Assembly: GCA_965219685.1 (NCBI GenBank)
Contig: CBDCOH010000002.1
Span: 2,784,001 to 2,848,000, forward strand
Reading direction: 5' to 3'
DNA: 64,000 nt
Origin: Candidatus Spongiisociaceae bacterium
GTDB lineage: Bacteria; Actinomycetota; Acidimicrobiia; Spongiisociales; Spongiisociaceae
Shown: piece after piece, positions 26,913 to 39,899 of the stretch
How positions within the stretch are numbered: the first letter of the stretch is position 1
Layout: every line of letters begins with the position of its first letter
Notes under the pieces: generated by a model
What the model saw: the letters and a program-made list of their open reading frames with translations, nothing else
Told to the model about the DNA's origin: nothing
Databases searched by the model: none
Position numbers and translations under genes: made by a program

Positions 26913-27704
26913 TCATCCGGCGAGCCGATCGGCGTTCCTCTCGTCGCGCCATGCCAGCCATTCGCCGAGTCCGCCCAGGTCGTAGGCCGGCCCGTTCACC
27001 GCCAGCGCGATCTGGGTGACGCCGGCTGACAGCAGATCGTCGGCATGGTCGATCTCGTCGAGTTCGGCCCCTCCCGCCCGTTCGACCTCGGACGGATCCC
27101 GACCTGCCGCCACGCACCACTCGTCGAGGATGCGGCTCTTGCGGCGCATGAGGTCTCCGTCGCCGAAGCCGTGCCAGACGTCCGCGTAGCGGCCCGCCAA
27201 CCGGAGGGTGTGCTTCTCTCCCAGCCCACCTATGAGAATGGGGATCCGCCGGATCGGCGGAGGATTGAGCCGGCCCAGCCTGCGCTTGATCCTGTACAGG
27301 CCCGCTTCGAAGTCGCGCAGGCGGCCGCCGAAGGTTCCGAACGGGTACTCGTACTCGGTGTAGTCCCGCTCGGTCCAACCCGCCCCCAGACCGAGGATCA
27401 ACCTGCCTTCGCTTATGTGGTCCACGGTTCGAGCCATGTCGGCCAGCAGATGGGCGTTGCGGTAGGAGTAGCAGGTGACCAGAGCGCCTATCTCCACCCG
27501 CTCGGTCACCTCCGCCCACGAGGCCAGCATCGTCCAGCACTCGAAGTGCTTCCCGTCGGCAGGGCCGGAGAGGGGGAAGAAATGATCCCAGTTGTAGATG
27601 ACGTCGGCGCCCATCTCCTCGGCGCGTACGGCCGCCGACCGCAGGTCACGGTAGTCACCGTGCTGGGGATAGATGTGCACCGCGATCCGGACCGGGCGGG
27701 TCAT
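26913..27704 (-). CDS. LLM-class F420-dependent oxidoreductase (MSMEG_2906-like)
   Basis: NWDHFFPL, HFECWTML, YRNAHLLADMART and ILIGGLGEK motifs. Confidence 0.85.
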   Translation of the reverse strand: MTRPVRIAVHIYPQHGDYRDLRSAAVRAEEMGADVIYNWDHFFPLSGPADGKHFECWTMLASWAEVTERVEIGALVTCYSYRNAHLLADMARTVDHISEGRLILGLGAGWTERDYTEYEYPFGTFGGRLRDFEAGLYRIKRRLGRLNPPPIRRIPILIGGLGEKHTLRLAGRYADVWHGFGDGDLMRRKSRILDEWCVAAGRDPSEVERAGGAELDEIDHADDLLSAGVTQIALAVNGPAYDLGGLGEWLAWRDERNADRLAG

Positions 27705-27747: not shown

Positions 27748-28389
27748 TCACGTCACCGCGGGCGGGACGCCGCCCGGGCGGTCTCCGAACTCGGGCGGCT
27801 CGGTCCGGGTCCGCTTCAGCTCCCAGAAGCTGGGCGTGCGGGTGGCCTCCACGACGATGTCCCAAAGCCGCAGAGACTCGTCGGCGGGCGGGACCTTGGT
27901 GATTACCGGGCCGAAGATGCCCACCCTCGCGCCCTCGCAGTCGTCCATCGCGATGATCGGCGTTCCCACATCCTGGCCCACCAGATCGAGGCCCGCGTCC
28001 ATGCGCGCCCGGATCTCCGTGTCCCAGGATGCGTCGTCGAACGCACCGGCGTGAGTTGTGTCCAAGCCACTGCCGGACAGCACCTCTCCCACGTCGAAGT
28101 CGAAGAGTTGCCGGTCGTGATGGATCCGGGTCCCGAACCCCCAGTAGGCGCGGAAGACACCCTCGTTGCCGTATTCGGTCCTCACCGACTCCATCACCCG
28201 CAGCAGACGGTGGGTCCGCAGCGACGCTGCGTAGCGGTCCGAGCCCGGATCGGGCCGGTTCTTGAACAGGAGACTGATCGGCTCCCACTCGATGCTCAGG
28301 TCCCTGACCGGAGACACCTCGTCGACGACCCACCGGGCCGTCACCCAGCACCACGGTCAGACGGGATCTACCCAGAAGGAGATGTTCAT
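27748..28389 (-). CDS. Rv2466c/DsbA-like thioredoxin-fold oxidoreductase, predicted selenoprotein (Sec at codon 11)
   Basis: ATG AAC ATC TCC TTC TGG GTA GAT CCC GTC TGA CCG TGG TGC TGG = MNISFWVDPV-U-PWCW, continuing in frame to the VGTP, FGPVI and ELKRTR family motifs. Confidence 0.85.
28324..28342 (-). promoter_or_regulatory. Putative bacterial SECIS hairpin
   Basis: GACGGCCC-GGU-GGGUCGUC stem-loop starting 15 nt after the in-frame UGA. Confidence 0.65.
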
Positions 28390-28439
28390 CGTCCGTCCTT
28401 TCCTACACCCGGAACGGTAGCGGGACGAGCAAGGGCAAG

Positions 28440-31013
28440 CTACCCGTGGGATTCCGCTTGGGCCGTCAGGGCCTCCGTAACCGGCCCCGTCTCCCGTTCG
28501 CGCATCATCACCATGGCCCGCAACCGTTCGAGTTTCTGCTCGAGCGCCTTGGCCGCATGCGGTAGCGGGTTCTCGGCGAAGAAGGTACCGACCTCGGACG
28601 CGACTTCGGGACGCGATAGGGCGGGAAGGCCCTCGATCATGCGGGAGTGGGTCATCGGAGGGAGACCGGCCGACATCGCGGGCCACTTCTCCGTCAGCCG
28701 CTCCCACGCGTAGGGTCCCGACACGCGATTGGCCAGCATCCTCCCCAGAACCCAGGTGGTGTCCTGGTTGCGGATGGTCCCGTCGTCCATGAGACCCAGG
28801 GTGCGGTCCACCGCCTCCGGGTCGTCGAACGAGGCCAGCGCTCGCAGGTACTTCATCGCCTCCTGTGGGTTTGCGGCATCCTTGTGCCTGGCCAGGAAGG
28901 CCCGGTAGGTGGAGGCATCCCCGTGGGCGGCGCACACGAAGATGCATGCGGATCCCACCTCGGGGTCGACCGCGGTCGGCTCCGACAACAACCGCTCCCA
29001 CGTGCTGCGAGCCCGGTCGACGGTCTCCTGGTCGTTGGCGAGGCAGCCCATGGCGGTAATGATCCGGCCACGCAGGCGCCGCACCAGGTCGCTCTCGCCC
29101 TCCGGCGGTCGCCACCCCAGGCGGTCCAGGACCGGTGCGGCGAGGCCGGACACCCAACGCTCGTACCGGGGACGGACCCCACTCGAGACCAGGTGATGTC
29201 CGATGCCGGCGGCCCCGCCCAGAACGGCGCCCCAAACCGCCTGCTCCGTCTCGCCGGCGAACGACGGCGCCAACGTCATGAACGACGGCGCCCCTGCCTG
29301 TCCGGACTCCACGAAGGCCCATGCGTCGTCCGCCACCGCGAAACGCTCCAGCGGGTCCAGTTCGTCGAGCCGGGCGAGGAGAGCCGCCTGGAGTGACTCC
29401 TGGTAGAGCGTCCGGTAGAACCCGTATCCTGCGGCGTTGGCGACCACCCAGTCGACCGGACCGCCGGTCGGGATGACCGCTTCCGGACCGTCGAGCAGCG
29501 CCTTCGTCTCGAAAGGCTCGCCGCCGGCACTTCCCCGGACCCGGACCGGGACCTTCCAGAGCGAGGAGTCCGAAGGATCGGGGATCAGCAGGAACCGGCC
29601 CTGGCGGAGGGCCACGCCTCCGGGGACGGCCCTTACCGACACCTGGGGATAGCCACCCTGGAGGATCCAGGTGTCCATGATGTCGCCCACCGGCCATCCG
29701 GAGGCCTCGTCGAGACTTCGCCACAGATCCTCGGTCTCGGTGTTGGCGTAGGCATGGGCCCGCAGGTAGGCGCCGACTCCACCGCGGAAGGCCTCCTCGC
29801 CGACGTGCTGCTCCATCATGCGGAGAACCGCGGAGCCCTTGCCGTAGGTGAGGGCATCGAACATGCCCTCCGCGTCCTCGGGCGAACGGACCTCGTACTC
29901 GACGGGGCGGGTGCCGGCCAACTCGTCCACCTTGAAGGCCCAGGGCCGCTCCACAGCGACGAACTCCAGCCACCGCTTCCACTCCGGACGGTAGGCGGCG
30001 GTGGCCTTCATCTCCATGAAGGTGGCGAAGGCTTCGTTCAACCAGATACCGTTCCACCACTTCATGGTGACCAGGTCGCCGAACCACATGTGCGCCAACT
30101 CGTGGCCGATCACGTCCAGGACCCGCATCTTCTCGCTGGTGGTGGCGGTGGTCTCGTCGACCAGCAGTACCGACTCGCGGTAGGTGATGCAGCCGAGGTT
30201 CTCCATCGCCCCGAAGGCGAAGTCGGGAATCGCCACCATGTCCACCTTGTCGCCCGGGTAGGGAATCCCGTAGTAGGAGGCGAGGTAGTCCAGGCAGAAC
30301 CGGCTGCAGGCGAGGGCGAACCCGGTCAGGTGCTCCTTACCCCTCGGTGCGATGATGCGGAGGGGAACGCCGTTGACGTCGATGGGTTCGGTCGCCTCGA
30401 AGGGACCCACGACGAAGGCGACCAGGTACGTGGACATCTCGATCGTGTCGGCGAAGGTCACCGCCACTTTCCCGTCGCCCGCCGGCGCCCTGGCGGTCTC
30501 GGCGCCGTTCGAGACGGCCATCAGGTCCCCGGGCACGACCAGGGTGACGCCGAAGGAGGCCTTGAAATCCGGCTCGTCCCAGCAGGGGAAGGCACGCCGG
30601 GCGTCGGTGGCTTCGAACTGGGTGGTGGCTATGACCTGCTCGCGGCCATCCACATCTGTGAAGGTGGAACGGTAGAAGCCTCTCAACTGGTCGTTGAGGA
30701 TCCCGCTGAACCGGCAGTGGAACTCGGCCGGACCCTCCGGGACCTCTCCTGCCAATGTGAGGACCGCCCGTTGCGCCTCCTCGTCGTACTCCACGCCGGC
30801 GCCCACCCGGCGCCCGTCACCGACGACGAACCAGGCCTCGTGGATGTCCAGTTCGATGGCGTTCAGCACCACCCGGTCGGTGGCCCCGGTCACCTCCACC
30901 TCCACTGCCTCGGTCCCGCTGAAGGTGGCCGCCTCGAGGTCGGGCTCCAAGCGAAGGCGGTAGTGCCTGGGCACCACGTTGCGCGGCAGCCGGTACGGGT
31001 CCTCGTTCATCAC
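28440..31013 (-). CDS. M1 family aminopeptidase (PepN/ERAP1-like)
   Basis: ARRAFPCWDEP, GAMEN and HELAHMWFG...WLNEAFA motifs. Confidence 0.95.
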   Translation of the reverse strand: MMNEDPYRLPRNVVPRHYRLRLEPDLEAATFSGTEAVEVEVTGATDRVVLNAIELDIHEAWFVVGDGRRVGAGVEYDEEAQRAVLTLAGEVPEGPAEFHCRFSGILNDQLRGFYRSTFTDVDGREQVIATTQFEATDARRAFPCWDEPDFKASFGVTLVVPGDLMAVSNGAETARAPAGDGKVAVTFADTIEMSTYLVAFVVGPFEATEPIDVNGVPLRIIAPRGKEHLTGFALACSRFCLDYLASYYGIPYPGDKVDMVAIPDFAFGAMENLGCITYRESVLLVDETTATTSEKMRVLDVIGHELAHMWFGDLVTMKWWNGIWLNEAFATFMEMKATAAYRPEWKRWLEFVAVERPWAFKVDELAGTRPVEYEVRSPEDAEGMFDALTYGKGSAVLRMMEQHVGEEAFRGGVGAYLRAHAYANTETEDLWRSLDEASGWPVGDIMDTWILQGGYPQVSVRAVPGGVALRQGRFLLIPDPSDSSLWKVPVRVRGSAGGEPFETKALLDGPEAVIPTGGPVDWVVANAAGYGFYRTLYQESLQAALLARLDELDPLERFAVADDAWAFVESGQAGAPSFMTLAPSFAGETEQAVWGAVLGGAAGIGHHLVSSGVRPRYERWVSGLAAPVLDRLGWRPPEGESDLVRRLRGRIITAMGCLANDQETVDRARSTWERLLSEPTAVDPEVGSACIFVCAAHGDASTYRAFLARHKDAANPQEAMKYLRALASFDDPEAVDRTLGLMDDGTIRNQDTTWVLGRMLANRVSGPYAWERLTEKWPAMSAGLPPMTHSRMIEGLPALSRPEVASEVGTFFAENPLPHAAKALEQKLERLRAMVMMRERETGPVTEALTAQAESHG

Positions 31014-32335: not shown

Positions 32336-33313
32336 ATGGACCGGACAGCCGAGATACCGGCGGGCAACCTTGCTCTGTTCCCCACGGGAGAGGTCGACGA
32401 GCCAACCTCGACGGCCGGTTCGCACGTCAGGCTCGACACCGGCGTGGACGCCCCCCTTGACTCCTTGAACCGCCCCGTGCTTGTGTGCGGGCGCGCAACC
32501 GACGCCTTGGGCCTGCTGCCGGCCGGTAGCATCCAGACGGCCGTGACCTCCCCGCCGTACTGGTCATTGCGAGACTACGACGTGGCAAACCAGATCGGTC
32601 GTGATGACGGACTTGGCGACTACATAAAGAGCATCGTCCTGGCCTTCGACCAGATCCGACGGGTTCTAGCCAATGACGGGACTGTCTGGCTCAATGTGGG
32701 CGACAGCTACACATCGGGCAATCGGAAGTACCGCGCTCCCGATCGAAAGAATCGCGCGAGGGCGATGCCGGTGCGTCCACCCACGCCAGCCGGCCTGAAG
32801 CCGAAGGATCTGATCGGTGTGCCGTGGCGGCTTGCGTTCGCTCTCCAAGACGCCGGCTGGTGGTTGCGATCCGAGGTGATCTGGTACAAGCCCAACGCGC
32901 ATCCGGAGTCGGTTCGTGACCGCCCAACCAAGGCACACGAGACCGTCTTCCTGCTGTCGAAGAACCAGGACTACTTCTACGATGTGTCAGCTGTGAAGGG
33001 CCCGAACGGCCGCCGACTCCGCACGATGTGGGACATCAAGACCGAGCCCCGTCAGCGAGACGCCGGAGGGATCGACGACCATCCTGCCGTCATGCCGATG
33101 ACGCTGGCTCGCCGCTGCATCCGGATCACCAGCCGACCCGGCGACTTTGTACTCGATCCCTACGCCGGATCCGGCACGACGCTCCTGGCAGCCCAGGAAC
33201 TCTCCAGGAGTTGGGTCGGTATCGAACTGAAACCCGAGTACGTGGAGTTGATCGAACGCAGGATCGCCGGGCGAGCCATGACGGCGGTCGGCGAACGAAC
33301 ATCGAGGATCTGA
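32336..33313 (+). CDS. Beta-class N4-cytosine DNA methyltransferase
   Basis: TSPPY (motif IV) precedes HPA...VLDPYAGSGTT (motif I). Confidence 0.92.
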   Translation: MDRTAEIPAGNLALFPTGEVDEPTSTAGSHVRLDTGVDAPLDSLNRPVLVCGRATDALGLLPAGSIQTAVTSPPYWSLRDYDVANQIGRDDGLGDYIKSIVLAFDQIRRVLANDGTVWLNVGDSYTSGNRKYRAPDRKNRARAMPVRPPTPAGLKPKDLIGVPWRLAFALQDAGWWLRSEVIWYKPNAHPESVRDRPTKAHETVFLLSKNQDYFYDVSAVKGPNGRRLRTMWDIKTEPRQRDAGGIDDHPAVMPMTLARRCIRITSRPGDFVLDPYAGSGTTLLAAQELSRSWVGIELKPEYVELIERRIAGRAMTAVGERTSRI

Positions 33314-39807: not shown

Positions 39808-39899
39808 GGAGGCGAACGAGCGCCTGGTGGGCTCCCTGGTCTTCAAAACCAGTGGGGGTACGAGAGTGCCCCGGCGGGTTCGATTCCCGTCCGCCTCCG
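39808..39899 (+). tRNA. selC: tRNA-Sec (anticodon UCA)
   Basis: Acceptor GGAGGCG/CGCCTCC, anticodon arm CTGGT-CTTCAAA-ACCAG, long variable arm, T arm GCGGG-TTCGATT-CCCGT. CCA is not encoded. A TATCCT -10 lies just upstream. Confidence 0.93.

Follow-up and report, generated by a model that had tools for sequence, protein, structure and literature searches.

The minus strand of the window analysed here, i.e., the whole 64,000-nucleotide (nt) stretch of Candidatus Spongiisociaceae bacterium DNA (GCA_965219685.1, contig CBDCOH010000002.1, positions 2,784,001 to 2,848,000), carries a gene for a DsbA-fold reductase that resembles mycobacterial Rv2466c and probably contains selenocysteine (Sec, U; Table 1). 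Read from its ATG, the frame encodes MNISFWVDPV, meets a TGA at codon 11, continues with PWCWVTARWVVDEV and stays open to a terminal TGA when the internal TGA is translated as U. The residues around codon 11 read FWVDPV-U-PWCW, which places the TGA at the first cysteine (Cys) of the motif DPxCPWCW. A preliminary description of this DNA had proposed a hidden, Sec-containing and Rv2466c-like reductase at this locus and had put an in-frame TGA at the nucleophilic Cys of the motif; this position is correct to the base, and all the coordinates given there are exact. It had also remarked that the list of open reading frames (ORFs) shortens the gene, and indeed the only ORF listed for the locus under translation table 11 (27748..28344, 198 amino acids) begins with the GTG at codon 16.

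The ten codons that precede the TGA bear the marks of a translated sequence. The ribosome-binding site and the ATG proposed earlier at this distance are both present, and 19 of 24 Sec-form loci have a word AGGA, GGAG or GAGG in the 20 nt ahead of the aligned start. Across these 24 Sec forms, the amino acids F-W-V-D-P at codons 5-9 are retained while their synonymous codons differ (TTC 17 and TTT 6; GTA 5, GTT 9, GTC 5 and GTG 1; GAT 7 and GAC 17; CCC 8, CCG 15 and CCT 1). Fixed amino acids encoded by varying codons indicate selection on a protein that is read in frame ahead of the UGA. Codon 16, where the gene callers start, is CAG or GAG in two of the 24 Sec forms, both from another family.

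Table 1. Features of the putative selenoprotein gene and its surroundings, with positions in the window.
Feature	Position	Strand	Remarks
Full coding sequence, predicted Sec-containing Rv2466c-like reductase	27748..28389	-	213 residues plus terminal TGA
Shine-Dalgarno-like sequence AGGAAAGGA	28396..28404	-	6 nt upstream of ATG
ATG, predicted true start codon	28387..28389	-	Shine-Dalgarno sequence upstream; frame constraint on codons 5-9
UGA, predicted Sec codon 11, replacing the nucleophilic Cys (Cys19 of Rv2466c)	28357..28359	-	
TGC, Cys14, predicted resolving Cys (Cys22 of Rv2466c)	28348..28350	-	invariant in 24/24 Sec forms
GTG, codon 16 (Val), start chosen by gene callers	28342..28344	-	
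Putative SECIS-type hairpin GACGGCC-CGGUG-GGUCGUC	28324..28342	-	+18..+36 from the U of UGA; loop 28335-28331
Terminal stop TGA	27748..27750	-	
tRNA-Sec, anticodon TCA	39808..39898	+	ARAGORN; Rfam RF01852, 77 bits; 11.4 kb away
M1 aminopeptidase (pepN-like) gene, directly upstream	28440..31013	-	ends 50 nt from the reductase gene; context only
F420-dependent LLM-class oxidoreductase gene	26913..27704	-	TIGR03856, 371.4 bits; 44 nt downstream; context only

Homologues show the pairing of Cys and TGA for which the preliminary description had suggested a search. A six-frame search of 41 related genomes detected the gene in 25, and the codon is TGA in 21 and TGC or TGT in four of these. Hence, close relatives do use TGA at this position. 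Within the window's family (29 genomes), the gene is found in 28, with one in-frame TGA in 25 (exact codon checked in 21) and none in three. Of 401 genomes sampled evenly across the phylum, 84 have a homologue at E <= 1e-15; five genomes in this count (G430, G161, G266, G278 and G061) are flagged as unpublished and enter no other claim. Among the best 12 loci of this sample, four have TGA at the motif, namely the window locus and those of G133, G187 and G329, all three from one other family of the same class. In a tally of 12 loci of this sample, Cys occupies the position in nine and TGA in the remaining three. Five further distinct Sec forms came from public genome records, where the Sec carriers are metagenome-assembled genomes that bear the labels Acidimicrobiia, Acidimicrobiales, Acidimicrobiaceae, Ilumatobacter or Actinomycetota. 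The public loci have Cys in 68 of 80 and U in 11, a split that is not a frequency because one search pattern spelled Cys and biased the outcome towards Cys forms. TGA at codon 11 is present in 29 distinct sequences from Acidimicrobiia genomes, which contain no other stop or frameshift, and in 24 of the 24 Sec-form loci that make up the set used for conservation and hairpin analysis. The recurrence of TGA at this one codon points to more than chance. Furthermore, the downstream sequence shares 67% mean column identity with Cys forms, i.e., it is under strong purifying selection, and contigs of the runs X1 (possibly the source sample) and X7 (from another study) match the window from 28316 to 28361 with 0 differing letters. 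Twenty-two lower-ranked rows flagged for TGA were also considered as Sec forms and rejected: 19 of the 20 that were fetched (G082:C5 and G281:C134 were left out) have a Cys motif and a terminal-stop TGA, and the remaining one is a Sec paralogue that is discussed below.

Downstream of the UGA, RNAalifold applied to the 24 sequences reports one strong element, a 7-bp stem (GACGGCC/GGUCGUC) with a 5-nt loop that reads N-G-K-U-G in 24 of 24. The stem-loop had been described before with a GGU loop about 23-25 nt after the UGA, and G, G and U lie exactly 23, 24 and 25 nt past the A. The stem codons 17, 18, 21 and 22 are nearly frozen among the Sec forms (ACG in 24/24, GCC in 24/24, GTC in 23/24 and GTC in 23/24), and the loop codon is variable (CGG 16, AGG 6 and CGT 2). 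Synonymous-codon entropy amounts to 0.50 at codons 12-24, whereas the 80 conserved positions outside this stretch have 1.07 (Mann-Whitney p 0.0027, a generous value since the sequences are related), and most Cys forms encode the stem stretch differently. The criteria for a bacterial selenocysteine insertion sequence (SECIS), which reportedly go back to Zhang and Gladyshev in 2005, are said to be the spacing from the UGA and an apical loop that contains G and U. Contig depth of several metagenome runs heaps up on 28312-28379 only, and the contigs diverge at both flanks. This heap fits extreme conservation of the motif-plus-hairpin segment, where relatives are near-identical and assemblies break.

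The genome also encodes the Sec machinery. The tRNA-Sec that had been noted 11 kb away is confirmed (Table 1), and a search for the remaining genes, which had been proposed as a check, retrieved all three of them above their curated cut-offs. selA (435.7 bits) and selB (322.7 bits) are neighbours on the window's contig at a distance of about 160 kb from the window, and selD (366.9 bits) is another 60 kb away; none of the three was found beside the tRNA-Sec within the window. selD (L011, G000:C2:2564589-2565512) has its own in-frame TGA at SPGAGU-ASK, a known Sec position, and this TGA is followed by a GC-rich hairpin with GGU (GGUC-type) in the loop. The selenophosphate synthetase of this genome is likewise a predicted selenoprotein. 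Throughout the family, selA scores over the cut-off in 27 of 29 genomes and was not found in G012 (72% complete) and G042.

The identity of the protein is supported by profile and structure searches. When Cys is put in place of U, the Pfam family PF22234 (Rv2466c-like) matches with 127.7 bits (cut-off 27, E 7e-37) over profile positions 1-180 of 180, the match to PF01323 (DSBA) is weak (27.5 bits), and an NCBIfam scan returned no family at E <= 0.01. The four phmmer matches in the PDB are chains of Rv2466c (4zil, 4nxi and 5xur) and its M. leprae counterpart (4wkw), with E-values of 1.5e-38 to 1.4e-35. In the alignment with the Rv2466c chains, U11 stands opposite Cys19 and C14 opposite Cys22, which act as nucleophile and resolving residue, respectively, according to passages in a review of 2025 (PMC11841060) and a paper of 2021 on a C. 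glutamicum homologue (PMC8280269). An AlphaFold model built on a 16-sequence alignment has a predicted local distance difference test (pLDDT) score of 90.3, and its best Foldseek matches are again the Rv2466c and 4wkw chains with template modelling (TM) scores of 0.73-0.79 (0.77-0.79 for 4zil); other cytoplasmic DsbA-like reductases and classical DsbAs rank far lower. In the model, U-P-W-C comprises residues 11-14 and is followed by a helix from 12 to 29, i.e., it sits at the N-terminus of helix 1. Thus, the predicted product is an Rv2466c-like (mycoredoxin-2 family) DsbA-fold reductase with a UxxC site, in agreement with the family in every sequence and fold feature tested, as had been proposed.

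Comparison with characterised enzymes places this protein among cytoplasmic reductases. M. tuberculosis Rv2466c (mycoredoxin-2; 4NXI, 4ZIL, 5XUR) and M. leprae 4WKW have the same fold (TM 0.75-0.79) and 33-36% identity; they align end to end with CPWC at the same place, and passages on Rv2466c describe a cytoplasmic reductase rather than an oxidase. The difference is that Sec would here take the place of the nucleophilic Cys19. The passages concerned also give CP(W/F)C as the signature of a 'DsbA-Mrx1' cluster whose members reduce and do not oxidise (PMC11841060, PMC8280269). The C. glutamicum enzymes NCgl2339 and NCgl2478 share C-P-W/F-C by description, with a nucleophilic first and a resolving second Cys; as far as the relevant passages go, they reduce mixed disulfides via a monothiol route and intramolecular disulfides via a dithiol route (PMC8280269), and they are Cys enzymes fed by mycothiol (MSH), mycothione reductase (Mtr) and NADPH, unlike the Sec form considered here. 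The classical periplasmic DsbA, a CPHC oxidase, shares the thioredoxin fold and the helical insertion (Foldseek TM about 0.48-0.53 for E. coli and others). In contrast to it, the reductase has a motif of the UPWC/CPWC type and no signal peptide, for which there is no room because the motif is reached already at residue 8, and its best matches are cytoplasmic reductases. It does not match a classical DsbA oxidase.

The UGA at the redox Cys, the translated upstream codons, the conserved hairpin, the Sec machinery and the listing of this family among selenoproteins in 2008 (see below) together argue for a genuine selenoprotein gene in which UGA codon 11 stands for Sec in a cytoplasmic, UxxC-type Rv2466c-like reductase. 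We assign this reading a probability of about 0.88, and the core claim of the preliminary description thereby stands; the actual insertion of Sec, the chemistry and the substrate are things that we infer. Translation would start at the ATG, and the UGA would be decoded by SelB and Sec-tRNA(Sec) under the direction of the 7-bp hairpin with its NGKUG loop, which begins 15 nt past the UGA; it would then proceed to the terminal TGA. The product would be a cytoplasmic DsbA/thioredoxin-fold enzyme of 213 residues with a U-P-W-C site. Judging from the Cys enzymes, a disulfide or mixed-disulfide substrate may be attacked by the U11 selenolate, Cys14 would resolve the intermediate to give a selenenylsulfide, and an upstream reductant would reduce the selenenylsulfide again.

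Several observations weigh against this assignment. RNAalifold finds 0 compensatory pairs among the 24 family sequences, where support for the hairpin consequently comes from conservation and not from covariation. As a single sequence, the 76-nt segment shows no unusual stability (z = -0.40, matched by 59 of 200 shuffled versions), and its minimum free energy structure is unlike the centroid. The gene's own stop is also TGA, which would make discrimination of the UGA wholly dependent on the hairpin. On the side of the machinery, the TGA form is present in G042 (96% complete, 160 contigs), where selA was not found, and selA occurs in the three family genomes with the Cys form as well, so that the machinery alone does not predict the Sec form. 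Finally, the searches of the own genome settled no candidate for the reductant, with an MshC-like ligase, gshB and egtD all not found.

Public annotation would be taken at face value if the UGA were a plain stop. The true product would then comprise 198 residues from the GTG at 28344, a DsbA fold devoid of its redox motif, and the ten upstream codons would be meaningless or a regulatory mini-ORF. This agrees with the table-11 ORF and with the database proteins: among the best 120 listed, the closest 35 have 183-202 residues, and the four inspected among the closest 12 all begin with MTARWVV, i.e., at codon 16, and have lost the active site. Such a protein would, however, lack both active-site residues that define the family, and the amino-acid constraint with synonymous variation at codons 5-9 would have no place in it. 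Moreover, the Shine-Dalgarno sequence lies ahead of the ATG and not of the GTG, codon 16 is no start codon in the two Sec forms with CAG or GAG, and the Cys forms are co-linear across the motif. We therefore regard termination at the UGA as highly unlikely. Readthrough of the UGA without Sec, in which a near-cognate tRNA inserts Trp, Cys or Gly or a local recoding signal independent of SelB is at work, appears to us only a little less implausible. The hairpin could in principle stimulate such readthrough, and the case for Sec is built on sequence. Yet the UGA replaces exactly the redox Cys, which is the classical Sec/Cys pairing, the genome has the full Sec machinery and a second gene, selD, with a known Sec position, and the spacing and G/U loop of the hairpin are as reportedly expected of a bacterial SECIS. 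In addition, TGA is the ordinary stop of the reductase gene and its homologues, and on this ground a genome-wide change of the code to TGA as a sense codon was also rejected.

A pseudogene, or an assembly or sequencing error that turned TGC or TGT into TGA, can practically be dismissed. Only one base separates these codons, and the assembly is of the metagenome type with 5.9% estimated contamination. Against these readings speak the 29 distinct sequences with TGA, which stem from separate genomes and have no other stop or frameshift, the contigs from runs of two studies, which show the TGA as well, and the strong purifying selection on the downstream sequence.

The distribution of Sec and Cys forms was further examined in a quick, unrooted maximum-likelihood tree. 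It comprises 107 distinct sequences, after removal of eight duplicates and of one row that lacks the motif. A single subtree of 38 rows (SH-aLRT 82) contains all 29 Sec forms, and the Sec/Cys label changes at least four times on the tree, three of the changes being forced by starred branches. Two lineages nested within the Sec forms, L033/L034 and L041, carry Cys. L041 (G341:C1, ~127222-127869) is a Cys form with DPACPFCW and sister to a Sec form, and it retains the hairpin sequence GACGGCCCGTTGGGTCGTC. This hairpin may represent a fossil SECIS that has outlasted a change from Sec to Cys; its retention speaks for that direction in L041, which is otherwise a matter of inference.

A second, paralogous subfamily in other genomes offers an independent view of the hairpin. 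It has a monothiol C-P-(W/F)-A site and is about 35% identical to the window protein. TGA stands at the Cys position in two of its 30 loci (motif DPV-U-PWA-W) and Cys in the other 28. Both Sec paralogues, in G187 (L150/L152, G187:C1:2563485-2564150, minus strand) and G505 (L154, G505:C8:478731-479381, minus strand), come from one genus and have CACCUCC-CGUUG-GGUGGUG at +18..+36, which is the position and loop type of the main family. Compared to the main family, two pairs of the stem (18:36 and 21:33) are C-G instead of G-C and one wobble pair is missing, and in the nearest Cys relatives these amino acids are encoded by non-pairing codons. The paralogue hairpin is the only covariation-type support for the putative SECIS. 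The occurrence of Sec in the UPWA paralogue looks like a separate and recent gain. Hence, Sec may have been gained at least twice in this class at the CP(W/F)x site of the DsbA fold, once in a dithiol UPWC and once in a monothiol UPWA enzyme, each with an equidistant hairpin. The supplement of the 2008 Global Ocean Sampling (GOS) survey cited below does not contain the DP.UPWA form of the fold, and the single match to 'UPWA' there is a glutathione S-transferase.

With respect to its surroundings, the reductase gene adjoins an M1 peptidase gene as noted in the preliminary description (Table 1). A pepN gene on the same strand is found upstream in 22 of the 36 loci examined and an LLM gene downstream in 21 of 36, all within the window's family. 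The preliminary description also placed Rv2466c of M. tuberculosis next to pepN. Searching 600-nt flanks of four Rhodococcus/Mycolicibacter loci with the window pepN as query gave no pepN-like match, a result too weak to count either way. A cofD-like gene in the own genome scores 250.3 bits (cut-off 257.45), which makes F420 synthesis plausible. Elsewhere in the window, an ORF on the plus strand (32336-33313) encodes an N6/N4 DNA methylase domain (PF01555, E 2.8e-48).

The source of electrons is of particular interest because the mycothiol dependence that defines the chemistry of Rv2466c is not to be assumed here. A check for mshA-D had been suggested and gives a divided answer. MshD scores over its cut-off in the own genome (171.5 bits), MshA-like (417.8 against 462.5) and MshB/Mca-like genes (187.8 against 224.35) lie slightly below theirs, and an MshC-like ligase was not found: the single gene of the CysRS/MshC type is a cysteinyl-tRNA synthetase (CysRS; TIGR00435 433 bits, TIGR03447 282 bits). 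A mycothione-reductase-like gene is present at 591.5 bits (cut-off 635.65). Across the family, none of the 29 genomes yielded an MshC-like ligase either. The class was sampled with 151 genomes; in 66 of them an MshC-like gene scores 346-446 bits, a range under the curated 485 and far over the CysRS level, and none of the 66 belongs to the window's order; the Sec-form genomes of the other family (G133, G187 and G329) do have an MshC-like gene. Mycothiol dependence is thus doubtful in this lineage, and the earlier suggestion of a possibly mycothiol-coupled enzyme finds no support here. Thioredoxin may serve as the reductant, as may an unrecognised thiol or mycothiol from a ligase that escaped recognition. 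A more specific version, in which the Sec enzyme of this order is independent of mycothiol and receives its electrons from an unrecognised low-molecular-weight thiol or from the neighbouring F420-linked partner, seems improbable to us at present; if true, it would constitute a selenoprotein redox relay without a described counterpart.

The family itself has been on record for some time. In the GOS selenoproteome, Zhang and Gladyshev (2008; PLoS Genet 4:e1000095, PMC2398784) catalogued a selenoprotein family 'DsbA 2', whose table row, in the part of the paper concerned, gives pfam01323 (e-value>0.001), UxxC, 18 sequences and 235 Cys homologues. The '#DsbA 2' reads in supplement file 1 run ...FWVDPIUPWCWVTARWVVDGVQPHRD...FWELKRTRKEGPDFGERP, and UPWCWVTARW occurs there 18 times, equal to the 18 sequences of the table. 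Compared by eye, FWVDPVUPWCWVTARWVVDEV of the window protein closely resembles FWVDPIUPWCWVTARWVVDGV of the reads, and both end in the same C-terminal ELKRTR..P.FG.RP (also RTRxExPxFGERP). Nothing essential differs, apart from the reads being single metagenome reads without genome context. Judged by this likeness, the window gene is plainly a further member of 'DsbA 2', and the selenoprotein family is not new; 'hidden' in the sense of previously undescribed does not apply.

Related UxxC selenoproteins have been described as well. According to passages in the respective papers, 'DsbA-like' forms date to the Sargasso Sea study of 2005 (PMC1088965) and recur in later surveys and reviews (PMC1794560, PMC9312934, PMC13188914), with DsbA-like selenoproteins listed for Anaeromyxobacter, Desulfovibrio and Desulfotomaculum (PMC1794560) and a 'DsbA-like form 1' in a 2026 review (PMC13188914). 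All of these are UxxC proteins of the DsbA superfamily, and PF01323 also weakly matches the window protein. 'DsbA 1' is nevertheless a different subfamily: its GOS reads carry ...SD(F/Y)(L/V)UPWC(Y/W)... and are FrnE-like elsewhere in the sequence. In its passages on the subject, the 2008 paper (PMC2398784) does not tie 'DsbA 2' to Rv2466c, Acidimicrobiia or a gene neighbourhood. The terms Rv2466c, PF22234, mycothiol, mycoredoxin and Actino* do not occur in the 2026 review (PMC13188914), and DsbA and Rv2466c do not occur in a 2026 preprint on Actinomarina that came up for Acidimicrobi* and selenoprotein. Within the searchable papers, i.e., outside subscription-only literature, none was found that links Rv2466c with selenocysteine, and the search listing for mycoredoxin together with selenocysteine showed nothing that looked relevant. 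Hence, a functional link between 'DsbA 2' and Rv2466c/mycoredoxin-2 appears not to have been stated in this searchable literature.

Current annotation obscures the enzyme. Full-length entries among the best 120 database proteins (204-221 residues) are Cys forms, and where names are given they read 'DsbA family protein', 'disulfide bond formation protein DsbA' or 'hypothetical protein'. In pangenome and functional analyses of Acidimicrobiia, a probable selenoenzyme is therefore represented by what looks like a dead piece of a DsbA protein. A specialist would not be surprised by the gene, and none of its implications is large. The lineage that carries it, in which an MshC-like ligase was not found, raises a small question over its low-molecular-weight thiol. 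Tying 'DsbA 2' to the well-studied Rv2466c/mycoredoxin-2 would give the family a concrete mechanism to examine, and its closely related natural Sec/Cys pairs, with Cys forms nested among Sec forms, would be suited to asking what Sec buys.

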